Below, in pieces: positions 11,128 to 53,519 of a stretch of 53,519 bases of DNA; positions within the stretch are counted from its first letter, which is position 1, and each line of letters starts with the position of its first letter. Both the position numbers and the translations under genes were made by a program. Origin of the DNA: Candidatus Yanofskybacteria bacterium RIFCSPLOWO2_01_FULL_42_49 (GTDB taxonomy: Bacteria > Patescibacteriota > Minisyncoccia > 2-02-FULL-40-12 > GWA2-44-9); the NCBI GenBank assembly GCA_001795615.1, contig MGKI01000008.1, positions 1 through 53,519 of the forward strand, written 5' to 3'. Under the pieces are notes generated by a model. The model did not search any database and was not told the DNA's origin. It worked only from the letters and a program-made list of their open reading frames with translations.

Positions 11128-12180
11128 CTAAAATTCATGTTTCTTTCTGTTGCCGAAGCGAGTTAGCCAAGCATTTCGCCTCAACTGGCTTATCTGTTCA
11201 TCTGTAAAATTATATGCCCTACAGCATTTCCAAAAAACAGTATGGATGTCATCCATAAACAAATCGTCATCCGGGTGCAAAGAAACCTTAACTCCTCTTT
11301 CAAACAAGACATCCAGTTCCAGTTCACGGATATCTCTTATAAGCCCCGAATAAAGATAACTTCCAGGACAGCTTGAAACTCCGATATCATTGTCAACCAT
11401 ATATTTGCAAAGTTCAGAGTCTCGGGAAAGCAAGCGAAAATGACTGCCTCGGTTTATTTTTAGCATATGGACTGCCGTTCTCATGTTTTCCATAAGTTTC
11501 GCCGGGCTACTGGCCCATTCTCCGGCATGAGCATCTGTCATCACGCCTCGTTCATGCGCATAATTAAAAATCTCAATATGCATCTCCGGCGGATATGTTA
11601 ACTCATCGCACACCAAACCAATTCCCACCAACCGACTTCTGTCTCCGTCGGCCACGATATCAACTATCTTTTTAGCTCTTTCCACTCCACCCCATTCTAA
11701 GTGTTTGGGGTCTACAATCTCTCTGCCGATGGCAATCAGCACATTGGCCTCAATTTTTGGGTATTCTTTTTCTGCCGCTTCCACTCCTGCCAAAAGCGCG
11801 CTGACAGCTTCTTTTTCAGTTAACCTGGCTCTGGACTTATTGTCTCCCCGCGTATGGTACTGAGGTGCAAAAGTGCCTTCGCAGTACCGCATTTCTTGGC
11901 CAGCCCGAACCTTGACATATTGGTGACCGAAAAGAAAAAGGGTGTCAGGATTTTGTAAAACATCTGTAAGCAGTCTGAATTTAGTGACGATGTCTATTTG
12001 AGGATTCGCATACCATGCGGTTGTTCTGTGTTTTAAGTCGTCGAGATTTAGAATATCTTTGAAATGAGCCGGCATCTCAAAGCCGCTGAGTTTATAGTAG
12101 TCCTCAATCGCTTCTAAGTTTGTTATTGCGCCATCCATGTGATCATGGTGCAAACAATCAAGTCCGGATGGAATAGGCAC
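11128..12180 (-). CDS. add: Adenosine deaminase family metallo-hydrolase
   Basis: 350 aa. Contains LHHDHMDG (HxHxDG-type), DAHAGEW (HAGE) and SLHPDDDLF (TDDP-like). Confidence 0.8.
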   Translation of the reverse strand: MPIPSGLDCLHHDHMDGAITNLEAIEDYYKLSGFEMPAHFKDILNLDDLKHRTTAWYANPQIDIVTKFRLLTDVLQNPDTLFLFGHQYVKVRAGQEMRYCEGTFAPQYHTRGDNKSRARLTEKEAVSALLAGVEAAEKEYPKIEANVLIAIGREIVDPKHLEWGGVERAKKIVDIVADGDRSRLVGIGLVCDELTYPPEMHIEIFNYAHERGVMTDAHAGEWASSPAKLMENMRTAVHMLKINRGSHFRLLSRDSELCKYMVDNDIGVSSCPGSYLYSGLIRDIRELELDVLFERGVKVSLHPDDDLFMDDIHTVFWKCCRAYNFTDEQISQLRRNAWLTRFGNRKKHEF

Positions 12181-12232
12181 GGATATCCCTTTTTTAAAAA
12201 ACCGTTGAGTGGTATACTATCATAAACAAATT

Positions 12233-12385
12233 AAAATCTCTAATCTCGAAACCCTAATCTCTAAATAATATCAAAATTCAAAATTATGTCCCCTTGGGAC
12301 ATCTCCCGAAGGGAGAAAAATTTTAAAACTTTTGAGATTTGACATTTGAGTTTATTTAGAAATTAGAGATTAGAATTTAGAGATT
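12233..12385. repeat. AT-rich palindromic 'word' element, family I copy 1, with two GC mini-hairpins at its centre
   Basis: The left arm aaatctctaatctcgaaaccctaatctctaaa is complementary to the right arm tttagaaattagagattagaatttagagatt. The centre holds atgtccc-ctt-gggacat and ctccc-gaa-gggag. Its arms are almost identical to those of 33314-33435. Confidence 0.85.
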
Positions 12386-12395
12386 ATCGTATAAC

Positions 12396-18180: not shown

Positions 18181-18260
18181 TTTTAGGGATTAGGTTTTAG
18201 GGATTAGGTTTTAGGTTTTCATTGACCCTAACACCTAACACCTAAAAGCTAACAACTAAC
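18181..18260 (+). repeat. Intergenic word-repeat hairpin
   Basis: The G/U-rich left arm (ttagggattaggtt x2, ttaggtttt) faces a C/A-rich right arm (ccctaaca cctaaca cctaaaa). Complementarity is imperfect. Confidence 0.7.
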
Positions 18261-25790: not shown

Positions 25791-25910
25791 ATTAGAAAAA
25801 TTAACCTAATTATTCTAATTAATCTAATTATTCTAAACTTTTGAAATTTATAATTTGAGATTCCTGCCTGCCGGCAGGCAGGTGTTTAGAAATTAGAAAT
25901 TAGAAATTTA
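25791..25910. repeat. AT-rich word hairpin with a central 20-bp GC palindrome
   Basis: ctaattattctaattaatctaattattctaaa faces tttagaaattagaaattagaaattt. The centre is cctgcctgccggcaggcagg (25863-25882). Confidence 0.8.
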
Positions 25911-31135: not shown

Positions 31136-32263
31136 ATGTCAAATCCTTTGGTCACAATAAACCTCGTGGTTCTCAACGGTGAAAAGTACATCCGCCATTG
31201 TTTGGATGCGGTTTTGGCGCAGACATATCCGCATAAGCTGATCGAACTAAACATTTTAGATAACGGCTCAACGGATAAAACAAAGGAAAATATTAGAGAT
31301 TCGAAATTAGAGATTAGAGATTCCGAGTTTTTCACTTTCAATCTCATTGAAAGTCCGAAAAATCTCGGTGTTTGGCCGGGACAAGAAGAATTACTAAAAC
31401 ACACGAGTGGCAAATATATAGTATCCTTGTGCGTTGATGTATTAATGGACAAGGACTTTATTAAAAATGCGGTAGAAGTAATGGGGAAGGATGAAAAAAT
31501 CGGCGCGCTCCAGCCGAAGATATACAGCTTCGAATTGGGAATTATGAATAAAGAATCAAGAAGTGAAAACCATAATTCATTATTCCCTATTCATTATTCA
31601 CGCATTATTGACACTTGTGGTTTTAAAATTTTCCGATCACGCCGTGTCATAAACATTGGCCACGGCGAGAAAGACCATGGCCAGTACGACAACCTCGGAG
31701 AAATTTTTGCCGTTGAAGGAGCAGCGCCGGTATTCCGCAAAGAAGCCCTAAAAGACTGTCAAATTAAATTAACGACATCGGATGGCCGTTGGACATCCGA
31801 TGTCCCCGCAACTGAAATCACCGACCACGACTACTTCTGGTACGGCGACGATCTGGATCTGGCTTGGCGGATGAGGTTATTCGGATGGAAAGAAGTATTC
31901 GCGCCCAATGTAATCGCATGGCATGACAGACAGACAACGAAATCGATCAAGAAAAGCTGGTCCGACTACATCACCAGAGTTCCGGTGCGCAGGCAAATTC
32001 CCATCAAAAAACGCCGTCTCGACTGGAGAAATTTGCGTTGGACATTAGTTAAAAATGATTATATAATAAACATTCTGAAAGACTTGCCCCAGATCATGTT
32101 AAGAGAGATAGCCGTGCTTGGATACGCAGTTTTATTTGAACCGGCGGTGCTTAAAGAAATACCGGCATTTTTCCGATATTTACCCAAAATGCTGAGAAAA
32201 AGAAAAGAGATAATGAGGCGGACAATCATAACGCCAAGAGAAATAAGGAAATGGATCAATTAG
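31136..32263 (+). CDS. Glycosyltransferase family 2
   Basis: VTINLVVLNGEKYIRHCLDAVLAQTY, LDNGSTDKT and a DxD-like YGDDLDLAWR. Several in-frame repeats and hairpins. Confidence 0.85.
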   Translation: MSNPLVTINLVVLNGEKYIRHCLDAVLAQTYPHKLIELNILDNGSTDKTKENIRDSKLEIRDSEFFTFNLIESPKNLGVWPGQEELLKHTSGKYIVSLCVDVLMDKDFIKNAVEVMGKDEKIGALQPKIYSFELGIMNKESRSENHNSLFPIHYSRIIDTCGFKIFRSRRVINIGHGEKDHGQYDNLGEIFAVEGAAPVFRKEALKDCQIKLTTSDGRWTSDVPATEITDHDYFWYGDDLDLAWRMRLFGWKEVFAPNVIAWHDRQTTKSIKKSWSDYITRVPVRRQIPIKKRRLDWRNLRWTLVKNDYIINILKDLPQIMLREIAVLGYAVLFEPAVLKEIPAFFRYLPKMLRKRKEIMRRTIITPREIRKWIN

Positions 32264-33315: not shown

Positions 33316-33435
33316 ATCTCTAATCTCAAAACCCTAATCTCTAAACAAATCCAAAAACCCAAATCTCAAAAACGTTTTGAATTTTGATATTTGAGATTAT
33401 TTAGAGATTAGAAATTAGAATTTAGAGATTAGAAT
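33314..33435. repeat. AT-rich palindromic 'word' element, family I copy 2
   Basis: The left arm aaatctctaatctcaaaaccctaatctctaaa is 30/31 identical to 12234-12264. The right arm is ...tttagagattagaaattagaatttagagattagaat. It fills the whole spacer from stop codon to start codon. Confidence 0.9.
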
Positions 33436-33436
33436 A

Positions 33437-34237
33437 GTGACTTCCATCATCATCGTCAACTACAAAAATCCGCCGTTATTGAGATTGTGTTTGTCGTCGT
33501 TAAAAAGAGCCCTCTCTGCTAACTTCAAACACGAGATATTGGTCGTTGATATTGCTTCTATTCCCGAAACAAGAAATGTGATCAAAGAATTTCCAGGGGT
33601 CAAAATAACAACATTCAAAGAAAACATCGGCTACACAAAAGGCGTTAATGAGGGGGTCAAGGCTTCATCTGGAGACTATATACTGATACTTAATCCCGAC
33701 ATCGTGCCCATGACAAAATCCATTGAGGGGCTTACTTCATACCTGGCAGCCAATACCAATATCGGCCTTGCCGGACCTCGACTCTTAAATTTTGACGGTT
33801 CGGTCCAAAATTCCGCCTTCCGATATTATACGCCCTTAACAGTACTCTGCCGGCGCAGTCCTTTAGGCCATACCCCTTTCGGTAAAAAAATATTGAACAA
33901 ATTCGTAATGGCAGATAAAAAATTAAACGCACCCTCGGAAGTTGAATGGCTGATGGGTTCTGCTATGCTGGCTTCTCGAAAGGCAATAGATAAGGTGGGA
34001 CTGATGGACGAAAATTTTTTTATGTACATGAGCGATGTTGACTGGGCAAGGCGGTTCTGGGAAAATGGATTCAAGGTGGCATATTATCCGTTTTCGGAAA
34101 TGTACCATTATCACAAGAGAAGTTCGAAAGGCCGCTTCGGTCCATTAGATATTTTCATGAATAAACAGAGCAGATTGCATTTAGTTGATGCGGTAAGATA
34201 CTTTAGGAAATACGGAATAAAAATTTCTAATACCTAA
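33437..34237 (+). CDS. Glycosyltransferase family 2
   Basis: GTG start. Contains TSIIIVNYKNPPLLRLCLSSL, ILVVD and GYTKGVNEG. Confidence 0.85.
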   Translation: MTSIIIVNYKNPPLLRLCLSSLKRALSANFKHEILVVDIASIPETRNVIKEFPGVKITTFKENIGYTKGVNEGVKASSGDYILILNPDIVPMTKSIEGLTSYLAANTNIGLAGPRLLNFDGSVQNSAFRYYTPLTVLCRRSPLGHTPFGKKILNKFVMADKKLNAPSEVEWLMGSAMLASRKAIDKVGLMDENFFMYMSDVDWARRFWENGFKVAYYPFSEMYHYHKRSSKGRFGPLDIFMNKQSRLHLVDAVRYFRKYGIKISNT

Positions 34238-34343
34238 TATCTAATTACTAATGAAATGTCTAATGCTCAAATGTCCAATTAGAGATTTGAAATTAAACAT
34301 TTAGAATTTTATTAGAAACTAGGAATTAGAAATTAGATATTTT
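34221..34343. repeat. AT-rich palindromic 'word' element, family II copy 1
   Basis: aaatttctaata...ctaattactaatgaaatgtctaat faces ...attagaaactaggaattagaaattagatatt. The left arm begins inside the last codons of the GT2 gene. It shares words with 42513-42630. Confidence 0.8.
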
Positions 34344-36306: not shown

Positions 36307-36781
36307 TAAGCTACCTTGCTTGGCGTTCGACAGAAACTTCTCTGAAAACCTGTCACTATTGGAATCCATCGCCAGCTGGCGGACCGGTTAAACCTCGTCC
36401 TCTTCCTCAACTCATCAAGTGATTCGAAGATAATAAGGCCTCGCTTCCTTGATGGCTTAGCTTGTACTTGTTGGCCAGCGAGAAGCCATCCCTATTTGAA
36501 TCACTATGACAAATAGATAGCAGTTGCAGATGAGCGACGCGATTTTTCTGGGAAACCGAGTCGGGGATGTCAGGTTCGGTCGAGCTCAGCTCGATCCGCA
36601 TGGCCTGACAGGGGTGACCCCGAGCGGTCAGAAAAATTAGGAGTGAATCGCAACTGCTCTATGAGGAGTCCGTGATGAAAATGAGGATGGCTTCGAACGA
36701 AAGATGAGGAATCGTGATGAGAAGACGACAAGGTCGAACAAAAATATATATCTTTTACGCTATTCATTGTATAATTAAATC
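36307..36781 (+). other. ORF-free, GC-enriched, highly self-complementary region (candidate ncRNA or long leader)
   Basis: No credible ORF. Hand count in 36541-36600 is 34/60 G+C. Nested long-range helices are agcagttgc/gcaactgct, atttttctg/cagaaaaat, tgtcagg/cctgaca and tcgagc/gctcga. Four tgaGGA/ttaGGA motifs lie in 36638-36712. Confidence 0.5.
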
Positions 36782-37696
36782 ATGCGAAAAGAATTCCAGA
36801 CAAACGGTTTGAGATGGATTCATATATCTAAGCCAACCGGGGAAGATGCTGAATTTGTAAATACGCTTTTCCCTTTTAACCCTTTCGTCATTGAGTCTAT
36901 CACCGCCCCGACCCTACATCCTTTGGTAGATGATTTTGACGATCATCTTTTTCTCATAATGCACTTCCCGATCATCTATAAGGACTGGCAGTCAAATGAA
37001 ACTGCCGAAGTTGATTTTCTTATAACTAAAAACTTGCTTATCACCGTTACTTATTCGGACTTTGAGCATATTGAACAAATCTTCGGCTTTCTTAACAGCA
37101 ACGAGAAATTAAAAAAACAAGTAACCCGCCACCATACCGGTTTTATGCTCCACCATATAATTGACTATATGTTTCAGAAACTCGTCAGCCATCTTGATTT
37201 TATGGAAGGGGAAATCACGGAAATCGAAGACAGGATTTTTGAAAAAAGAAATGTCAGGATGATAGAAGAAATTTCTCACATCCGAAGGGATATATTGGAT
37301 TTCAGGAGACCGCTTAAACCGCAGTCAGCCGTTCTCAAAATGTTTGCGGAAAAAGCTGAAAAGTTTTTCGGCAAACCGATGGCGCCGTACTTAACCGATA
37401 TAATCGTAACCGAAGACAGGATAATGAGCATCATCGATAACCAAAAAGAAACCGTCGACGCTCTTTACCAAACAAACGAGTCGCTGATGTCATCCAATAT
37501 TTCAAGCATCATTACCATCCTTACAATATTTTCAGCGGTCATAATGCCGCTTAATCTCATGGCATCTCTTTGGGGAATGAATCACCAGACCATGCCGTTG
37601 CGCGACGGACAGTTTGATTTTTGGATAATCATGGGGATTATGGCTATCATCGCAGTATCACTGCTTGTCCTGTTCAAGAAAAAAAGGTGGTTATAA
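36782..37696 (+). CDS. corA: CorA-family magnesium/cobalt transporter
   Basis: 304 aa. Two C-terminal TM segments and the LWGMNHQ (GMN) signature. Confidence 0.9.
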   Translation: MRKEFQTNGLRWIHISKPTGEDAEFVNTLFPFNPFVIESITAPTLHPLVDDFDDHLFLIMHFPIIYKDWQSNETAEVDFLITKNLLITVTYSDFEHIEQIFGFLNSNEKLKKQVTRHHTGFMLHHIIDYMFQKLVSHLDFMEGEITEIEDRIFEKRNVRMIEEISHIRRDILDFRRPLKPQSAVLKMFAEKAEKFFGKPMAPYLTDIIVTEDRIMSIIDNQKETVDALYQTNESLMSSNISSIITILTIFSAVIMPLNLMASLWGMNHQTMPLRDGQFDFWIIMGIMAIIAVSLLVLFKKKRWL

Positions 37697-37734
37697 CTTC
37701 ACAAAAATAGGAAAATAGGGTCTAAATTGAACTA

Positions 37735-37764
37735 TTGACAAGATGGTTTTTTTTATGTTATAAT
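37735..37764 (+). promoter_or_regulatory. Consensus sigma70-type promoter
   Basis: TTGACA-agatggttttttttatgt(18)-TATAAT, lying in AT-rich DNA just before the GC-rich island. Confidence 0.65.
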
Positions 37765-37931
37765 TAAAGGGTAGTTATGTTGACAACAGCTTTGCTGGGC
37801 CGGTCGTCGAGTCGAACTCGACTAATCGCATAGTGCGAGCCGGTTTAGCGAAGCACAGCCCCGGCCAGCTCAGCTGGCCCCGTAAACCCCGCAAAATGGC
37901 CAGGCCATCGCGGGGGACGAAGGAGACAGAA

Positions 37932-38366
37932 ATGCAGCGTTTTCAAATCGTTCGGCAGATCTCGGGCGAACGGAAGCAGATCGACGGCCGGCTAGTCGAC
38001 ACACTAATGGCCATCGTCCGATTCCCGGACAGTGACACGACCCGCCACCTCCAGCGGCACGACGGCCGCTGGACGGGTTGGAACTCGGACCGCGCTCGTC
38101 GTGAGCGCGCCGGGATTCTGGAAACACGCCAGAACTACGACGAAGCCGTCGCGGACGGCGAGTCGTTGGTCAGCAAGCTCGAGGCAAAGCTCGCCGATCT
38201 GAAAGGCAAGCGAGGCACCAAGGCCACAGCGGAGCGCAAGCGTCTCCGAGAACTGATCAAGGGCAACAAAGCGACGCTCGCGGTTCTCAAGACAGGACAA
38301 GCCCACGCCGTCGCGATCGCAGACAAGGTCGACGAGACCCACCCCGAAATCGTCGAGTTCGCGTAA
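37932..38366 (+). CDS. Orphan GC-rich protein, no recognisable family
   Basis: Start chosen at MQRFQIVRQ, preceded by the gaaggaga SD. 144 aa, basic and coiled-coil-like (LEAKLADLKGKRGTKATAERKRLRELIK). G+C is 42/60 in 37861-37920 and 35/60 in 38161-38220. Confidence 0.65.
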   Translation: MQRFQIVRQISGERKQIDGRLVDTLMAIVRFPDSDTTRHLQRHDGRWTGWNSDRARRERAGILETRQNYDEAVADGESLVSKLEAKLADLKGKRGTKATAERKRLRELIKGNKATLAVLKTGQAHAVAIADKVDETHPEIVEFA

Positions 38367-38423
38367 CCCATGAATTCGACCCCACCACACAAGACGCACC
38401 TGCCACAGGCAGAGCCAGCGCCG

Positions 38424-38452
38424 CCCCGACCACAAGTCGGGGTTCCTTTTTT
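38424..38452 (+). terminator. Rho-independent terminator of the GC-rich orphan gene
   Basis: ccccgac-cacaa-gtcgggg followed by ttcctttttt. Confidence 0.8.
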
Positions 38453-38462
38453 ATATCAAACT

Positions 38463-38487
38463 AAAACCCGCCTCTTCGGCGGGTTTT
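38463..38487. terminator. Hairpin at the 3' end of rpmA
   Basis: aaaacccgcc-tcttc-ggcgggtttt. It has A/T runs on both sides, so it could act in both directions. Confidence 0.75.
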
Positions 38488-38764
38488 AGTTTGCAACCAC
38501 ATTCACTATTTTTACTAATCGCCTCTGACCGTTGAAGAGTTTCTTTTTCTTGGTGGTAAATTTAACCTTGCCGACGACTACGGCATAGATAGTATAATCA
38601 TGGCCGAGACGAACGCCGTCTCCGGCGAGAAATTTAGAACCTCTTTGGCGGACGATAATATTGCCCGGTTTTGCAATTTGACCAGCGTATAATTTTACGC
38701 CAAGATATTTGGGTTGCGAATCTCTGCCTAATTGTGTACTGCCGATGGCTTTGGTATGTGCCAT
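38486..38764 (-). CDS. rpmA: Ribosomal protein L27
   Basis: [45 protein letters not shown]. Confidence 0.93.
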
Positions 38765-39659: not shown

Positions 39660-41531
39660 ATGCAAATCAGAAACATCGCAATTATTGCTCACGTTGACCA
39701 TGGGAAAACAACCCTTACTGATGCCCTAATGAAACAAACAGGTATGGTTGAGGAGGGATTCAGTATGGACATAAACGCGCTTGAGAAAGAGCGCGGTATT
39801 ACTATTTATGCCAAGAACGCCTCTCTTTTTTACAAAGATACGAAAATAAATATCGTCGACACTCCCGGCCATGCGGATTTCGGTTCAGAAGTAGAGCGAG
39901 TCTTAAGATCAATTGACTCTGTGTTACTTATCGTGGACGCCCAAGAGGGACCGATGCCCCAGACCAAATTTGTTTTAAAAAAGTCTCTGGAACTGGGGCT
40001 AAAGCCGATACTGGTTATAAACAAGATAGACAAGCCGGCGGCTAAGCCCAATGAAGCCCACGAAAAAGTTCTGGAACTTTTCATGGATCTAGGGGCCAAC
40101 GACGAACAGCTGGACTTTAAAACCATCTATGCCAACGGACGAGCGGGAATAGCAAAATTAAAAATGAAGGACGAGTCAAAGGATTTGTCTCCTTTGCTTG
40201 ATCTGATACTCAAAGAAGTGCCGCCGGCGCCTTCTGATACTTCAGCTCCGTTGCGTTTTCAGCCATTTAATCTTGGGTACGATAATTTTTTGGGCCGGCT
40301 TGGTATCGGCAGAGTTTGGTTCGGGACTATGAAGGTAGGGGATAGTGTATTTATAAAAAAGCCGACAGAGATTCTAGGGGCGGCTAAAGCACACCCCCAA
40401 GAAACTTCTCCGAGCACTGGTGAAACTCGCACGGGAAAAATAACTAAATTATTTAATTTCCGAGGGATGGAGAGGAAAGAAACCGATGAAGCACAAGCCG
40501 GCGATATCGTCATGATTGCCGGACTTCCGGACATATACATCGGAGAAACCGTATGCGCCTCTCCTGATGTGGAGCCCTTGTCGGCTATCAGCGTAGATGA
40601 GCCGACCATATCTTTGAACTTTCTGGTTAACGACTCTCCGTTCGCCGGAAGAGACGGAAAGTTCGTGACCAACAGACAATTAAAAGAACGACTGGAAAGA
40701 GAGCTTGAGGTCAATATCGGGCTGAAAATTTCCGCCGAAGGCGGATCCGCCTCTGGCGGAGATTTTTCAAGTACTGCTTACAAAGTTTACGGCCGAGGAG
40801 AACTCCACATCGCTATCCTGCTTGAAAATATGAGAAGAGAGGGCTATGAGCTTCAGGTCTCACAACCGCAGGTGATTATCAAGGAAATAGACAACCAAAA
40901 AATGGAACCATTTGAAGAGGCGCTTATTGACGTTCCTGAAAATCTGTCCGGAGTGGTTATACAAAAACTCGGCAAGCGAGCCGGAAAAATGATGAATATG
41001 GTCCAACACCACGGCGAAGTTCGCATTACTTTTGAAATACCGACACGCGGTCTTTTGGGCTTCAGGAACGAGTTTATGATTGATACTAAAGGCGAGGGGA
41101 TACTCGCAAGCCACTTCATCGGCTTTCGACCCTATGCTGGGGAAATAAAAAAGAGAAGCGTCGGTTCTATGGTTTCTATGGAAACAGGCAAGGCGCTTGG
41201 TTTTTCGTTATATAACCTCCAGGACAGAGGCAAGTTATACATCGGGCCGACTGCCGAGGTCTATGAGGGGATGGTCATTGGTGATGTATCAAAAGGAAAC
41301 GACATGTCCGTTAACCCTATCAAAGGTAAAAAATTAACGAATATGCGGGCTTCGGGTTCAGATGAAAATATAATTCTCGTCCCTCCGTCTCCGATAACCC
41401 TTGAGACCGGTCTGGAAATTATGCAAAACGACGAATACCTCGAAGTAACGCCTAACAACGTCCGGCTGAGAAAAAGATACCTTACGGAAAATGACAGAAT
41501 AAGAGCAGCCAGAAGTTCAGCTTCTCAATAA
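39660..41531 (+). CDS. typA: Translational GTPase BipA/TypA
   Basis: IRNIAIIAHVDHGKTTLTDAL, DTPGHADFG, NKID and GRGELHIAILLENMRREG. Confidence 0.93.
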   Translation: MQIRNIAIIAHVDHGKTTLTDALMKQTGMVEEGFSMDINALEKERGITIYAKNASLFYKDTKINIVDTPGHADFGSEVERVLRSIDSVLLIVDAQEGPMPQTKFVLKKSLELGLKPILVINKIDKPAAKPNEAHEKVLELFMDLGANDEQLDFKTIYANGRAGIAKLKMKDESKDLSPLLDLILKEVPPAPSDTSAPLRFQPFNLGYDNFLGRLGIGRVWFGTMKVGDSVFIKKPTEILGAAKAHPQETSPSTGETRTGKITKLFNFRGMERKETDEAQAGDIVMIAGLPDIYIGETVCASPDVEPLSAISVDEPTISLNFLVNDSPFAGRDGKFVTNRQLKERLERELEVNIGLKISAEGGSASGGDFSSTAYKVYGRGELHIAILLENMRREGYELQVSQPQVIIKEIDNQKMEPFEEALIDVPENLSGVVIQKLGKRAGKMMNMVQHHGEVRITFEIPTRGLLGFRNEFMIDTKGEGILASHFIGFRPYAGEIKKRSVGSMVSMETGKALGFSLYNLQDRGKLYIGPTAEVYEGMVIGDVSKGNDMSVNPIKGKKLTNMRASGSDENIILVPPSPITLETGLEIMQNDEYLEVTPNNVRLRKRYLTENDRIRAARSSASQ

Positions 41532-42498: not shown

Positions 42499-42512
42499 AT
42501 TACAAGTTTAGC

Positions 42513-42630
42513 AAATTTCTAATTACTAATTCCTAATTTCTAAATATAATGTCTAATCCTTAAATTTCTAAAATTGGTCATTAGAAATTGGGGATTTGAT
42601 TAGAAATTAGATATTAGAAATTAGTAATTC
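42513..42630. repeat. AT-rich palindromic 'word' element, family II copy 2
   Basis: aaatttctaattactaattcctaatttctaaatataatgtctaat faces attagaaattagatattagaaattagtaatt. It shares aaatttctaat, ctaattactaat, atgtctaat and attagaaattagatatt with 34221-34343. Confidence 0.8.
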
Positions 42631-44049: not shown

Positions 44050-45369
44050 CTAATCGTTCTTGATGAAAAGCGTTATCTCCTGCCACATCAATGCTATTGC
44101 TGCCTTAACGGGAAGAATTGACAACATGTATTTTAAATCAACTAACTCTCTAATCACCCAGCCCCAGAAACCTTTTACATTTACGCCTCCCCAAAGATGG
44201 GCAAGTGCATATTTGCCGCCAACGGGGGCTATCCAAACATCAAAGAAGGGGTTATAGCTTACTAGCTTATCAGATTTTAGCGACCGCAAAATGTTTTTGG
44301 CTGCTATTTTGCCCTGCTCCACGGCAACATAAGCCAAAGCCGGAACTAATCTTCCGGTTTTCTGATCTTGAAATTCAACATTATCCCCCGCCGCGAAAAC
44401 ATTCGATAAGCCGGCAACCTTAAGACTGTCGTCAACGACTATTTTCCCGTTGCCGGCCAAAGACATGCTCGGCAAGTTTTTGAGAATATCCAGCGGTTTT
44501 ACTCCGGTAGTCCACACTACCAAATCAACATCTATGGTTTTTCCGTTCTTTAGTTTTATGTAATCGCTTCTGACTTCTTCAACCGCCGCTCCTTCCGTTA
44601 CCTCAACACCTAACCGGGTAAGCCGCTCCATTATAACAATCCGCTCTTTGTCTGAAATCATCGGCAATATTTTTGGAGCCGCTTCTATTAGAAGCACTCT
44701 CTCGCAACGACCCTTGATCCCGCGTGCTTGAGTAAATTTTTTGACGCAGCAAGTAAGTTCGGCGGCAACTTCAATTCCAGTGAAACCGGCGCCGATGACT
44801 GCAATTTTTACCCCGTAGTGAATTTTCCGAAATTCTTTTGGCGACTTCGTCGCAGTCGGAAAATCTACTACGGGGTTTATAGGCTCGCTTTTGACATCGC
44901 CTTCGCGTTGAGTTGCAAAAACCAACTCGTTTATTTTTTGATTCAGCGCCAGTCCGTTTTCTAAACTTTTAAAACTAAAGGCGTATTCTTTAACTCCGGG
45001 AACTCCAAAATCAGATGACTGGCTGCCGAGCGCGATTATCATATAGTCATAATCGAGTATCTCCCCTCCCCTGGTGGCAACTTTTTGATTCTCAACATCT
45101 ATGGAAAATATCTCCGCTTGGATAAATCTAATTTTCTTAGCAGAAAAAATATCCGAATATGGGATACATATCGTTTTCTTTAACCGAATGGCGAACGGAT
45201 CTTGTTTTAACCCATAAGCCGACGCCACTTCATATAAAGCTGGGACAAATAGGTGATAGCTGTTTTTGTCTACTAAAGTTATCTCGGCTTTACTTCCAAT
45301 CTTTTTTTCCAAATCTAAAGCGCAACGAATGCCACCAAATCCTCCCCCCAATATCAAAATTTTATGCAT
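44050..45369 (-). CDS. ndh: Type II NADH dehydrogenase (FAD/NAD pyridine-nucleotide disulfide oxidoreductase)
   Basis: KILILGGGFGGI, a second Rossmann motif KIAVIGAGFTGIE, and FAAGD. Confidence 0.88.
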   Translation of the reverse strand: MHKILILGGGFGGIRCALDLEKKIGSKAEITLVDKNSYHLFVPALYEVASAYGLKQDPFAIRLKKTICIPYSDIFSAKKIRFIQAEIFSIDVENQKVATRGGEILDYDYMIIALGSQSSDFGVPGVKEYAFSFKSLENGLALNQKINELVFATQREGDVKSEPINPVVDFPTATKSPKEFRKIHYGVKIAVIGAGFTGIEVAAELTCCVKKFTQARGIKGRCERVLLIEAAPKILPMISDKERIVIMERLTRLGVEVTEGAAVEEVRSDYIKLKNGKTIDVDLVVWTTGVKPLDILKNLPSMSLAGNGKIVVDDSLKVAGLSNVFAAGDNVEFQDQKTGRLVPALAYVAVEQGKIAAKNILRSLKSDKLVSYNPFFDVWIAPVGGKYALAHLWGGVNVKGFWGWVIRELVDLKYMLSILPVKAAIALMWQEITLFIKND

Positions 45370-48375: not shown

Positions 48376-50379
48376 ATGTTCATCGTCGAAGTTATTCCTT
48401 TAACGCTTCTCCCTCCCAATGTGCCTCAAATTTTGAGTTACTTTTGTGATTCTCGACTGGCAAAGGGGGCAATAGTCGAAGTAACTCTAAACAAAAGAAA
48501 AGTTAAAGCCGCAGTCATATCTTCAAGTTCTTTAGAAAAAGAAAAGTTAGCGCTAAAAAAAGTCGATTTTCAAATCAAAAAAATAAGTAAGGTATTGTTT
48601 GAAAAACCCCAGATAAGCGATTACCAATTAAAACTTGCCATCTGGATCGCAAAATACTATCACGCTCCGCTTGGTTATACTCTCAAAACCATTCTCCCCC
48701 CTTTCGCCTTCAAAAAGAAATACCCAATAACTCCGCAAACCCCGCTTATCCACAATTTTTCATTAACGACACGGAATGTCGTTAATCCGCAGTTGTGGGT
48801 TTATAAGACAAAGGGACTAATTACTCACCTTGAGTCATTAATAAAAAAAACAGTTGATGATTCAAAACAAGTTCTGATAACGGTCTCGGAAAAAGCGTCG
48901 ATTAAGTATTTTTTTGAGAACCTTTCAAAAAAATTTGACGTTTCAGTCATATCTTCCGACTTACCGAACGAGAAGCTATACGATGCTTGGAGAAAAGCCG
49001 GAACAGGAGAGGCAAAAGTAATTATAGGAACGCGCCAGTCTTTAAATATGCATTTCAAAGATCTCGGTCTGATCATAGTCGATGACCCGTCTCATGAATT
49101 TTATAAATCTGATATGGTTCCGCGCTATAACGCCGTTAAACTGGCAGATAAAGTAGCCGAACTAAACGGGGCTCGGCTTGTGCTCACATCGGTTCTTCCA
49201 AGCGTTGAGGATTACCACAAAATTAAAAATGGCTCTTACGAATTTAAAAATCTGGAAAATCGGCCGAAATTCGAAACAGAGATTGTCGACATGTCTCAGG
49301 AAATAAAAAATTCAAACTGGTCGCCTATCAGTAAAAAACTGGGCGAAAAACTTCTTGAATACCTTAAAAACAACAAAAAGATCCTAGTCTTATCCCCTCG
49401 AAGGGGCTATGCCGGAATCCTGATATGCGGCAACTGCGGTTCGGCCGTGAAATGCCCTCAATGCGAGGTCGCCATGCGCACACACAGATCAGTTGAAATG
49501 ATTTTGGCTTGCCACCATTGCGGAATATCCAAATCAATGCCTGAAAATTGCCCCACATGTGGAAGCCATAGCCTGAAAACCGTCGGTCCTGCCGGCACTC
49601 AGAAAATATATGAAGAAATAAGACGCCGTCTCATCGCCGCTGACATTAAGTCTCCCGTATTAGCTCTTGATACGGATATAGTAAAGAACGAAACGGAAGA
49701 AGAGGAGATAATTTCGGAAATACTTGCCCCGCACCAAGCCCGCCCCTCATCCGTCAATAAGACGGATTGGCGGTCAGCGGAGAAGCTTGGTGCGGGGTCT
49801 AAACCAGGGCCATCAGTTCTTGTCGCTACGCAAATGGTTTTCTCCCACCGTTTCTATCTTAACTTTGACTTGATAGGCATTGCTAACGCGGACGCTCTCA
49901 TAAATATGCCAGATTTCCGATCTGAAGAAAATTTATTTTACCACATAGAAAAACTTGTCGGCTTCGAACCAAAAAAATTACTGATACAGACATACAATCC
50001 TGAAAGTATAATAATCGGAAAAGCAGCCCGCAACGATTATGTGGAATTTTATGATAATGAGCTCAAACTTAGAGAAGCATTAAATTATCCTCCGTTTTAC
50101 CGGCTGGTTAAATTAACCTTCCGGCACAATGACAAAACCAAGGCGTCTTACGCCGCCAGAATAACAACGGAAAAATTAAAAATGGCTGTTGCGAGATCGC
50201 GACTGGGCGAAGAAATAAAAGTCATAGAAGCAACCCCAGCATACATAGAAAAGGAAAGGAATCTGTACGCCTATAACATTTTTCTGAAAGTACGAGAAAA
50301 CTATCAGAACATCAACGAATTACTTAAATACGCCGGCCCAGGGTGGATTATAGACGTCGAACCAAGAACGCTCCTATAA
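48376..50379 (+). CDS. priA: PriA-like primosomal protein N' with degenerate ATPase motifs
   Basis: Start chosen at MFIVEVIPLTLLP. The Zn-binding region CGNCGS..CPQC...CHHCG...CPTCGS is present. Where PriA normally has GSGKT and DEEH, this protein reads YKTKGLIT and DDPSH. Confidence 0.75.
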   Translation: MFIVEVIPLTLLPPNVPQILSYFCDSRLAKGAIVEVTLNKRKVKAAVISSSSLEKEKLALKKVDFQIKKISKVLFEKPQISDYQLKLAIWIAKYYHAPLGYTLKTILPPFAFKKKYPITPQTPLIHNFSLTTRNVVNPQLWVYKTKGLITHLESLIKKTVDDSKQVLITVSEKASIKYFFENLSKKFDVSVISSDLPNEKLYDAWRKAGTGEAKVIIGTRQSLNMHFKDLGLIIVDDPSHEFYKSDMVPRYNAVKLADKVAELNGARLVLTSVLPSVEDYHKIKNGSYEFKNLENRPKFETEIVDMSQEIKNSNWSPISKKLGEKLLEYLKNNKKILVLSPRRGYAGILICGNCGSAVKCPQCEVAMRTHRSVEMILACHHCGISKSMPENCPTCGSHSLKTVGPAGTQKIYEEIRRRLIAADIKSPVLALDTDIVKNETEEEEIISEILAPHQARPSSVNKTDWRSAEKLGAGSKPGPSVLVATQMVFSHRFYLNFDLIGIANADALINMPDFRSEENLFYHIEKLVGFEPKKLLIQTYNPESIIIGKAARNDYVEFYDNELKLREALNYPPFYRLVKLTFRHNDKTKASYAARITTEKLKMAVARSRLGEEIKVIEATPAYIEKERNLYAYNIFLKVRENYQNINELLKYAGPGWIIDVEPRTLL

Positions 50380-51529: not shown

Positions 51530-53519
51530 CTATTCCGCAAGTATTTCAGCCGATGTTTCCGGGGTACTTTCGGGTGATGCTTCGAGAGTAGGAGTTGGTT
51601 CTGGCGTTGCTTCCGGCGTCGGTTCGGCGGCATCAGAAGATGTCGGCGCGACATCTTCTGATGCCGTTAATTCTGGCTCTGGCTCAGGAGTTGGCAATTC
51701 AGAAGGACTTGGCGTTAGTTCAGGCTCTGGAGAAGGCGTCGGGCTTTCTAAAGGCGCAGGCGTGTTTACCGGCTCGTTTTCCCCAGTAGTAGAAGTTCCG
51801 GTTACGGCTTCGCCGAAGACCTGTCTAAACTTTTCTCTGGTAACACAGATGTCATCAACGCAAAGTTCGTTTGTCTTTACTTTTTGGAAAGTTCCGACAG
51901 TTGCCGTAACGTTTTCCGCCACCACATGCGCCACTCTCAGCAGCCCCTTTTCAAACACGATATTAAACGCATCTTTAAACATAGAAATAACGGCGTTGAA
52001 TATTAAACTGCCATTTACCGTGTTGCCATTAATAACCATCTCATCAGGCACCAGCTGGCCGTTGGCTGCTTCCAAGACCGTGATCTTGTCATTGAGTTCC
52101 TGAATGGCTTTAACAATTAATGGGGTCAGGCGTCCGTAATCAACTGACCATGGATTCATTTTTGGATCATCGCCGCCGACAGTAACCGCATACGGGTATA
52201 TTTCATACAGTTCTTGAGCAATGAGTCCTTGTGTTTTGGCTTTATTTGGGTCGCTGATAAAGTTAAACTCACGGACTGATATCTCTATTAACTCATTTAG
52301 ACCAAGCCCTGAATCAATGATATTTTCCTTGAGACGCCGGTCTGAAGTGGTATTATATGTCACAGCCGCAGCGCCTGAATTTTGCGTGACACTGCCTATG
52401 ATTGAATTAGCCGCGTTTCGAAAGATAATATATGTCCCTGCTTCAACATCAGCGCTTGGAAGTAAGTCAAGATGTGCGCCAAATGTACCTTTAATAGTGA
52501 GGATTGAGCCTGAGTTAAAACTCGTCGTCCCGATGCTGACGTTGCCGCCAAGTGGATTTAAGGCAATAGGATAGGAGTTGCCGCTTGAAGAAGTATGACG
52601 ATGTTGAATTGAGGCGGCAAATGGGGTTGTGGTGTCAATAGTAAATGCCAAATCTGTTAATCCGTTGTCAATGTTCAATAATGCGGCGGTATCCACTGTA
52701 AGTGATGGGTCAGTATCGCCACCCACTATTGATAATTTTGAATATGGCCCCGTCGTCCCGATGCCGACGTTGCCGGTGGAAGCGATTCTGACCATTTCGG
52801 TATCGCCTACAAAAAGACGAATAGAATTTGTATCTGTTGTGCCGGTTGTGCCGGCATGAAGTTCTAATAAACCGCCGGCCCCGCTTCTGTTGGTGCCGCT
52901 CATGCTAATTCTTGCGCCACGAGCTGACGAATCGGCGCCGGCAGCTGATAACACAATATATCCATCATCAGCCCCATTGGTAGTGGCCAGACCGATTACA
53001 TTGTTTTTGGCTATGGACAGTAGTGTTTGCGGGCTTGTTGTCCCAATCCCCATGTATCCCGTTGAGGCAATCGTCACAATCGGACTATTGTCGTTGTTGA
53101 AAATATTGAGTCGTTCAGTGCCGTTGCCCAATCCGATTGAGAAGTTACTTTGGTTAACTGCGCCGGAACCATTGCCTCTAAAGAAAGCCGAGGCGCTGGC
53201 GGTGTTGTTGGCGATGAATATCTGGGAGATGGAAGCGAATTGAGCAGAGATGGAACCGTCAACTTCCAAGTCCCCGGAAACAAGCAAGTCATTGCTTGCC
53301 GAGATGTAATTTGCATGGCCGGTAGTTGATGTCCCGAATCTGTTGTAGCTTTGCGAGCTGAAGCCCCCGACTTGCAATGCTCCGAAGAGGCCGTAGCTAG
53401 CCGAGGCCGTGCCTTGGACTTCAAGGACCGTAACCGGGACTGTTCCAAGGCCGAGTCTGGCGAATTGGGGGGTGGCCGAAGTATGAATATCCTGGGGTGT
53501 TGACAGAGTGACGGTTCCG
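51530..53519 (-). CDS. Tail-fibre-like surface protein with a peptidase-S74 intramolecular chaperone domain; 5' end outside the window
   Basis: Repeated GIGTT motifs are present. TSDRRLKENI...GLIAQELYEIYPYAV...WSVDYGRL is typical of S74 and lies at about 52060-52345. The tail is P/E/T-rich. The frame stays open upstream of the tracked start (53377) to the window edge. Confidence 0.75.
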   Translation of the reverse strand, partial: GTVTLSTPQDIHTSATPQFARLGLGTVPVTVLEVQGTASASYGLFGALQVGGFSSQSYNRFGTSTTGHANYISASNDLLVSGDLEVDGSISAQFASISQIFIANNTASASAFFRGNGSGAVNQSNFSIGLGNGTERLNIFNNDNSPIVTIASTGYMGIGTTSPQTLLSIAKNNVIGLATTNGADDGYIVLSAAGADSSARGARISMSGTNRSGAGGLLELHAGTTGTTDTNSIRLFVGDTEMVRIASTGNVGIGTTGPYSKLSIVGGDTDPSLTVDTAALLNIDNGLTDLAFTIDTTTPFAASIQHRHTSSSGNSYPIALNPLGGNVSIGTTSFNSGSILTIKGTFGAHLDLLPSADVEAGTYIIFRNAANSIIGSVTQNSGAAAVTYNTTSDRRLKENIIDSGLGLNELIEISVREFNFISDPNKAKTQGLIAQELYEIYPYAVTVGGDDPKMNPWSVDYGRLTPLIVKAIQELNDKITVLEAANGQLVPDEMVINGNTVNGSLIFNAVISMFKDAFNIVFEKGLLRVAHVVAENVTATVGTFQKVKTNELCVDDICVTREKFRQVFGEAVTGTSTTGENEPVNTPAPLESPTPSPEPELTPSPSELPTPEPEPELTASEDVAPTSSDAAEPTPEATPEPTPTLEASPESTPETSAEILAE

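Follow-up and report, generated by a model that had tools for sequence, protein, structure and literature searches.

The priA gene on contig MGKI01000008.1 of Candidatus Yanofskybacteria bacterium RIFCSPLOWO2_01_FULL_42_49 carries, in frame, a GC-rich hairpin at 49727-49797 of the 53,519-nt stretch analysed here in full (hereafter the window). This hairpin is very probably one copy of a dispersed, non-autonomous family of palindromic repeats, called F1, which occurs in bacteria of the candidate phyla radiation (CPR) and resembles the Rickettsia palindromic elements (RPEs). Comparison of related sequences shows that the copy in the window is a true insertion of exactly 75 nt in priA. F1 appears to be undescribed in CPR bacteria: no account of such elements was found in the CPR/Patescibacteria literature searched, which does not in itself prove their absence.

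Structure of the priA hairpin

The host gene (Table 1) encodes the primosomal protein N'. Its start codon is probably the ATG at 48376, and the reading frame is already open from 48253. A Pfam scan of the product identified PriA_3primeBD, PriA_C and a zinc ribbon, and the protein matches the solved PriA structure PDB 4nl4 (E = 4e-50). The nearest relatives, some of which are named primosomal protein N' of Ca. Yanofskybacteria or Paceibacterota, share 64-72% identity by BLASTP and 68-75% in alignment A1, which comprises 34 PriA sequences (the window copy and 33 homologues).

A first-pass annotation of this DNA, made from the letters alone, had described a two-tier palindrome within this frame, and the structure was recovered as described. 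The outer stem consists of 13 perfect base pairs, CCCCGCACCAAGC being the reverse complement of GCTTGGTGCGGGG, and is joined to a 7-bp apical hairpin by CCGC/GCGG and CC/GG pairings. In the minimum free energy (MFE) structure, 49740-49747 pairs with 49769-49780 and the TCA and AGAA segments are bulged out. The segment reaches 65% G+C against 42% across the window and encodes, in the frame of priA, the peptide LAPHQARPSSVNKTDWRSAEKLGAG. The length originally given, 71 nt, is that of the hairpin, but the inserted unit is 75 nt long since CTTG precedes the hairpin.

The predicted RNA fold (-49.2 kcal/mol, z = -5.2) was not equalled in stability by any of 200 shuffled sequences, and the DNA fold (-26.6 kcal/mol) gives z = -6.3. 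No other 80-nt segment of the 53.5 kb is as stable. In the window as a whole, inverted repeats whose arms match perfectly over 13 bp or more, with a spacer of 3-90 nt, are strongly over-represented (8 observed for 0.11 expected). The hairpin matches no curated RNA family: an Rfam 15 search of the window at the gathering score returned three tRNAs only, and near the hairpin itself a single spurious miRNA match scored 16 bits for a threshold of 135.

A precise insertion in priA

The insertion suspected from the letters is supported by alignment A1, in which the 25 residues are absent from 32 of the 33 homologues. The sole other carrier, P0001, shares not only the residues but the DNA (74 of 75 nt), so that no homologue possesses equivalent residues without the DNA symmetry. 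The filled site reads GAA ATA (75 nt) TCT AAA, with boundaries exactly at 49723-49797. Five empty sites (L002-L005 and L044) show the corresponding junction with nothing in between. It reads GAA ATA-TCA/TCT AA in L004 and L005 and differs by a few substitutions in the other three. Comparison of the filled site with these five empty sites revealed no target-site duplication.

An AlphaFold2 model, built on the alignment, gives the insert (residues 450-475) a predicted local distance difference test score (pLDDT) below 50, with high values on both flanks. The F1 peptide in PriA falls between a confident helix and the strand bearing the conserved ATQM motif and is modelled as a surface loop.

One further priA gene was inspected for a remnant of the element. 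The sequence CCGCCGGCTGGCGG in P0002 was rejected as an F1 leftover as it is located after TCTAAT and not before. The same gene (L005, 7350-7375) includes a 14-nt palindrome, CCGCC-GGCT-GGCGG, which accounts for approximately 3-4 extra residues two codons past the empty F1 site and is no remnant of F1.

Distribution of the F1 family

Genome-wide searches with the two arms, a check proposed by the first-pass annotation, recovered F1 in other genes and in other genomes. A scan of GTDB representatives (one genome per species) with the arms only identified six CPR loci, half of them in Yanofskybacteria-titled records and the other three in Saccharibacteria-titled ones. The arms matched at four more places, in GC-rich Actinobacteria and Sphingomonas; the interiors of these matches are unrelated, and they appear to be fortuitous. 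Scanning metagenome contigs with the conserved right half added 27 loci; the core at 49769-49780 was part of this search pattern and is invariant among those copies by construction. The pooled loci correspond to 23 distinct sequences. The canonical unit is 63 nt long, CTTG-CCCCGCACCAAGC-CCGCCCC-loop of ~10 nt-GGCGG-TCA-GCGG-AnnA-GCTTGGTGCGGGG, and 60-, 72- and 75-nt forms are also found. A covariance model of the family (R1) assigns 80.5 bits to the window copy and detects no other F1 copy in the window.

F1 occupies at least 11 distinct open reading frame (ORF) contexts, listed by host gene in Table 1, as well as intergenic and 5S-like sites. As an example of the intergenic copies, L009 and L035 carry F1 directly past the stop codon of a putative groEL, identified by eye. 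Other copies lie within a second 5S rRNA-like gene adjoining a normal 5S gene on its downstream side (L041 ~12040-12290, minus strand), where F1 is inserted between CAGAAG and TGAAAT. Pairwise alignment with the neighbouring 5S gene establishes the likeness to 5S. The 3' half of this 5S-like gene is almost identical to the first 5S copy, and a further hairpin, distinct from F1, is located in its 5' half. The Rfam 5S model fails to detect the F1-bearing gene even at E = 1. Further loci with the same arrangement are L006, L017, L018, L020, L036 and L032/L037.

The viral contigs scanned contained no F1 and a single copy of a related hairpin (F2, see below), and lend no support to a phage vector. 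A protein-database search with a 68-residue concatenation of the three F1 frames returned no candidate with shared words.

Stem conservation and the 75-nt sub-variant

Over the 23 distinct F1 sequences, 96.6% of the cells of the stem are standard pairs, compared with 34-42% when the partners are slid. Several positions covary: at the terminal pair (5/75), 14 copies have C-G and 8 have U-A; at pair 20/56, 19 have G-C and 4 have A-U; and pair 32/40 of the nested stem changes from U-A to C-G. In the copy of L045, which falls outside the bias of the DNA pattern, one A-T pair of the outer stem has become C-G. Such covariation should be read with the caveat that intrastrand template switching during replication can yield paired changes in the absence of selection.

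In the window copy, a sub-variant of F1, the apical loop has expanded into an additional stem of 7 bp. A 63-nt F1 with the plain loop CTTTCTGAAT occupies this priA site in L021 and L038; the window and L001 have, in place of that loop, TCATCCGTCAAYAAGACGGATT, 12 nt longer. The same apical extension recurs at another locus, in L016, where C-G stands for T-A as a compensatory change; L031 has a related extension.

Reading frame and orientation

All F1 copies found in ORFs (11 contexts) are 60, 63, 72 or 75 nt long, hence divisible by three, and none introduces a stop in the host frame. Approximately two thirds of the six frames of F1 are open, which gives a probability of (2/3)^11 = 0.012 for this outcome by chance, length not being taken into account. 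F1 is therefore most likely translated, since removal at the RNA level would require neither open frames nor a multiple of three. On the evidence of the sequence and the model, the priA copy would most likely be transcribed and translated as a 25-residue disordered surface loop tolerated by PriA. The peptides APHQARPSSVNK and SAEKLGAGSKPGPSVLVATQMVFSHR are the predicted products that would mark translation of this insert.

The forward strand of F1 is antisense to the host gene in 10 of the 11 ORF contexts (p ~0.01); the priA copy at the window site is the only sense one. Sense orientation is also seen for the copies inside the 5S-like gene and past the putative groEL. Stop codons are not the cause of this bias, as two thirds of the frames are open in either orientation in a frame-by-frame reading. 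GC skew of the flanks does not reveal a uniform orientation relative to replication and tracks the coding strand instead. On the forward strand, T-runs come after several of the copies. It is possible that F1 prefers to insert just before T-rich sequence, which would lie on the antisense strand where coding strands are A-rich. Selection against a sense terminator-like hairpin followed by a U-run could add to the bias.

Descent and spread

The F1 carriers at the priA site of the window are not monophyletic. L021 and L038 share 91-94% protein identity with P0002, whose site is empty, and the window PriA groups near P0013, whose site is likewise empty. Between the elements of the window and of L001 there is a single difference in 75 positions, located in the apical loop, while their flanks are 72-77% identical; assuming 25% divergence, the probability of such identity is ~1e-8. 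Carriers that do not form a clade, together with a near-identical element, imply precise repeated loss, repeated gain at one site or recombination of alleles. The sequences thus indicate that simple vertical descent does not explain F1 at priA. Selection for mobility may uphold the identity of the arms, as may transfer that is recent or repeated, or intrastrand template switching that re-perfects the palindromes.

Origin of the priA hairpin

The scenario which best accounts for these observations is that of a mobile repeat. Numerous sites across CPR genomes would have received a copy of F1. Its insertion in priA was precise, 75 nt without target duplication, in the loop preceding the ATQM strand and with the frame kept. 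The hairpin would then be a feature of the element itself, probably recognised on single-stranded DNA by an enzyme acting in trans. Absence of target duplication and clean empty sites fit a cut-and-paste chemistry of the HUH/Y1 type (IS200/IS605- or RAYT-like).

Several points weigh against this scenario. Neither the window nor the flanks of any F1 copy yielded a transposase gene or another candidate for mobilisation, no movement of F1 was observed, and no tetranucleotide is common to the 5' flanks of the copies, in contrast to the targets of IS200/IS605. Copy number appears low (a single copy in the 53.5 kb here, and in one GTDB genome two whose arms are exact). For most family members the search pattern itself set the right half, which is invariant for that reason. 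Translation of the ORF copies is a deduction from their frames, and the strong conservation of F1 may be due to a host function instead.

The last point leads to the first alternative, which we consider improbable: the hairpin would be a structured RNA or DNA signal selected by the host, such as a site for RNase III or for processing, a pause in translation, a terminator, or a hairpin that binds a protein or serves replication restart, with the same role elsewhere. Near-perfect conservation of the hairpin amid diverged flanks and preservation of the stem by covariation are expected of such a signal, and some copies do occupy terminator or processing positions (past the putative groEL stop, by 5S in the rRNA operon) or precede T-runs. 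However, because F1 is antisense in most ORF contexts and sense in priA, an identical RNA is not produced. The host genes share no function, close relatives with clean empty sites manage without F1, decayed copies are present and no Rfam family is matched.

Less probable still, by a clear step, is an intervening sequence of the intron or ribosomal type that is cut out of the RNA, leaving a PriA without the 25 residues and a 5S-like RNA without the hairpin. The copies in the 5S-like gene agree with this possibility, as does the long perfect stem, a typical RNase III substrate, and CPR rRNA genes are known for insertions absent from the mature rRNA. However, excision would not need ORF copies that are all free of stops and, in four length classes, all multiples of three. 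Cutting without ligation would destroy the mRNA. A splicing-type junction was also considered for the priA copy and rejected: read by eye, the flanks GAAAUA and UCUAAAC are unable to pair and do not form a junction of the bulge-helix-bulge type.

Symmetry that is accidental or ancestral in a variable loop of PriA, or that results from an artefact of assembly, has a negligible probability and is already refuted, even though the site is a variable surface loop in homologues bearing many short lineage-specific inserts, by fold z-scores of -5 to -6, by the excess of inverted repeats of that size, by identical DNA in independent assemblies of other samples and by recurrence of the F1 sequence in unrelated genes.

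Comparison with known palindromic elements

RPEs are short palindromic repeats without coding capacity of their own, scattered over the small, AT-rich and reduced genome of Rickettsia, and many of them lie in frame in unrelated housekeeping genes, where they lengthen the host protein by a peptide segment (PMC10969869). F1 is closest in kind to these elements. This is a likeness of functional class; sequence homology is not claimed and, as size and host differ, is not expected either. As for RPEs, the same F1 palindrome is found at several unrelated loci, and its ORF copies are in frame and open, translation again being deduced from sequence. However, RPEs are ~100-150 bp long and restricted to Rickettsia, whereas F1 measures 60-75 nt and belongs to CPR bacteria. 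F1 is additionally found in a 5S-like gene, and its copies in Yanofskybacteria-titled and Saccharibacteria-titled records show only a few differences.

Bacterial MITEs (transposable elements of the miniature inverted-repeat type), such as Correia/NEMIS, ERIC and the Coxiella QMITE, are small and non-autonomous, have terminal inverted repeats and include some intragenic, in-frame fusions (PMC10969869). F1 likewise has terminal inverted repeats, in the form of its 13-nt perfect arms. Classical MITEs however have target duplications, while F1 at the priA site has none and the F2 copy in the priA of L001 has at most 1 nt; F1 is for this reason not a classical MITE. Furthermore, classical MITEs stem from an identifiable insertion sequence, and no parent of F1 turned up in the window or in the flanks of the copies.

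Repetitive extragenic palindromic (REP) elements, with REPINs and their RAYT transposases, and hairpin elements of the IS200/IS605 type (PATEs) insert without target duplication and are excised precisely as single-stranded DNA. It is on this behaviour that the mechanism proposed above is modelled. F1 does not correspond to either type. REPs lie outside genes, number in the hundreds and carry a 5' GTAG, whereas F1 is mainly intragenic, of low copy number and devoid of GTAG, and thus appears not to be a REP or REPIN; one GTAG is located within an arm of the related hairpin F3. F1 shares with IS200/IS605-derived elements the lack of target duplication and the precise empty sites. The ends of IS200/IS605 nevertheless comprise two different subterminal hairpins and a fixed target of 4-5 nt. 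F1 does not fit such ends, because it is a single long hairpin and its 5' flanks (ATA, TTG, CGG, GTG, GAG, ATG and others) reveal no fixed target. No Y1/HUH gene was seen near any F1 copy.

Two other systems are comparable. The GC clusters of yeast mitochondria and the byp elements of Magnusiomyces are GC-rich palindromic mobile units of compact AT-rich genomes, some of them in protein genes. Short repeats usually flank the GC clusters, and the ribosome skips byps, which need not be in frame. F1, in contrast, is bacterial and all of its ORF copies are in frame and open. The intervening sequences of rRNA genes are stem-loops excised by RNase III, described in 23S and 16S rRNA; they are not known to lie in frame inside protein genes. 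F1 resembles them as a stem-loop inserted in an rRNA-like gene.

Related hairpins F2 and F3 and other PriA inserts

A second family, F2, has the arms CCCGTTAGAAGT/ACTTCTAACGGG and variable interiors. Its copy in the priA of L001 (5376-5450) is exactly 75 nt long, in frame and organised as 13/45/13. Further copies were identified in L005 (1423-1503), L013 (1313-1381 and 4764-4811) and L043 (2298-2353). F2 is common to Yanofskybacteria and Saccharibacteria contigs, and the single copy from viral contigs lies in an IMG/VR contig. L013, a Saccharibacteria contig, carries two F2 copies together with F1 in gyrB.

The two-tier hairpin F3 of the window (Table 1) lies in a Pyr_redox_2 gene which is 75 nt longer around it than the L002 and L005 orthologues, where 28 alignment columns (A3) are absent. 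The peptides encoded by its ends, PVVD..HYG, resemble PVVE..YG of the PriA N-terminal inserts in P0005 and P0016. F3 may be a family related to F1: F1, F2 and F3 all begin with (C/T)CCCG and end with the complement, and the terminus CCCCG of F3 is the same as that of F1. The shared CCCG-type termini suggest that one mobilising machinery would serve all three.

A broader proposal, which we put forward as speculative and rather doubtful, is that F1, F2 (CCCGTTAGAAGT) and F3 (CCCCGTAGTGAAT) form a CPR-wide superfamily of 60-83-nt hairpins with CCCG-type termini. A hairpin-specific enzyme would move them without target duplication, by precise excision or site-specific re-insertion, with transfer between Saccharibacteria and Yanofskybacteria, and they would continually remodel surface loops of essential proteins and even a 5S copy.

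Alignment A1 includes many more short lineage-specific inserts at several PriA sites (for example P0014, P0004/P0022, P0007/P0024). Those among them that were read at the DNA level are GC-rich and mostly form hairpins. That of P0019 (L002, 7753-7854) is 102 nt long and folds into three stems.

A second stem-loop in priA

The first-pass annotation had also pointed to a 10-bp stem-loop upstream in priA, ATTAACGACA-CGGAA-TGTCGTTAAT, encoding LTTRNVVN. The stem is present as described, and the palindrome is real and conserved with altered letters; it is not an insertion within the clade, however, because homologues have equivalent residues there. The surrounding linker (residues 119-135) has low pLDDT. 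Related sequences retain the palindrome within the clade while letters and encoded residues change (Table 1). Its origin may be an ancient insert of palindromic DNA, or template switching may have kept the site perfect. Over the whole window, stems of 10 or more perfect pairs with loops of 3-8 nt were observed 13 times for 0.5 expected.

Other features of the window

The remainder of the 53.5-kb window consists of ordinary housekeeping genes, and no transposase gene is found among them. It also contains AT-rich arrays of a 7-nt unit (CTAATYT) in inverted arrangement, mostly intergenic, at 12240-12387, 33320-33432, 34234-34336 and 42512-42624, and additionally at 18183-18207, 25886-25903 and 31293-31317. 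CTAATYTCTAA with at most one mismatch occurs 35 times in the window for 3.5 expected.

The second most stable fold of the window is a perfect 18-bp palindrome at 51628-51666, CGGCATCAGAAGATGTCG-gcg-CGACATCTTCTGATGCCG, which encodes part of the Pro/Thr/Glu-rich C-terminal tail of a tail-fibre-like protein with a Peptidase_S74 domain (gene 51530..53377, minus strand). The product of the BipA/TypA gene (39660..41531) has two inserts relative to E. coli BipA: one of 8 residues, GGSASGGD, encoded by a small palindrome rich in GC, and one of 17 residues in domain II; the two insert regions are 40725-40766 and ~40357-40410. Finally, the stretch 36500-38500, which surrounds the CorA gene and an unannotated 177-residue ORF (37833-38366), is locally GC-rich (up to 74% G+C in 80-nt windows) and includes several strong hairpins.

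Table 1. Position of the hairpins and their parts in the window, host contexts of F1, and counterparts of the second stem-loop
Feature	Coordinates	Strand	Basis or remark
priA (primosomal protein N'), F1 host gene	48376..50379	+	ORF list, Pfam domains, homologues, structure match
F1 element, 75-nt nested variant (CTTG + 71-nt hairpin), peptide LAPHQARPSSVNKTDWRSAEKLGAG	49723..49797	+	empty sites, covariance model
Outer stem, left arm CCCCGCACCAAGC	49727..49739	+	near-invariant over 23 distinct copies
Middle helices, left side CCGC CCCT	49740..49747	+	MFE structure
Nested apical hairpin ATCCGTC-AATAA-GACGGAT	49749..49767	+	takes the place of the ~10-nt loop of canonical 63-nt F1
Middle helices, right side GGCGG TCA GCGG, conserved core of F1	49769..49780	+	fold and family comparison
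Outer stem, right arm GCTTGGTGCGGGG	49785..49797	+	terminal pair covaries
F1 in priA, window site			75-nt form in window and L001/L028; 63-nt form in L021/L038
F1 in priA, second site (P0076/L045)			87.7 bits; found via protein homology, free of DNA-pattern bias
F1 at priA N-terminus (L003)			decayed copy, 40 bits
F1 in tryptophanyl-tRNA synthetase (trpS)			immediately after KMSK
F1 in GyrB			N-terminus
F1 in class-II aminoacyl-tRNA synthetase gene			AspRS-like
F1 in SpoU methylase gene
F1 in S1-domain protein gene			different reading frame of the element used
F1 in Wzy-like membrane protein gene			Wzy_C
F1 in PAP2 phosphatase gene
F3 hairpin ACCCCGTAGTGAATTTTCCGA...TCGGAAAATCTACTACGGGGT, family arms CCCCGTAGTGAAT, two-tier	44810..44876		in Pyr_redox_2 gene 44050..45369 (minus)
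Second stem-loop ATTAACGACA-CGGAA-TGTCGTTAAT	48762..48786 (imperfect extension 48750-48798)	+	PriA linker
Second stem-loop in L001, ATTAACGATGT-tca-ACATCGTTAAT			peptide LTMFNIVN
Second stem-loop in L005, ATTAACGACAC-gaa-GTGTCGTTAAT
Second stem-loop in L002, GTACGA...TCGTAC
Second stem-loop in L044, ACCGAC...GTCGGT
Second stem-loop in L045 (outgroup)			absent

Significance

If F1 is a mobile repeat, CPR housekeeping proteins would owe many of their short lineage-specific inserts to insertion of repeats and not to slow evolution of loops. Segments of the F1 type would then be better masked in alignments, phylogenies and structure predictions of CPR bacteria. F1 would provide a second independent system, after Rickettsia, for the study of in-frame palindromic repeats. 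F1 is also present in records titled Saccharibacteria, a group of which some members can be grown in the laboratory. In uncultured populations, the clean filled and empty alleles at a single priA site may serve as natural markers of recombination or of element activity.

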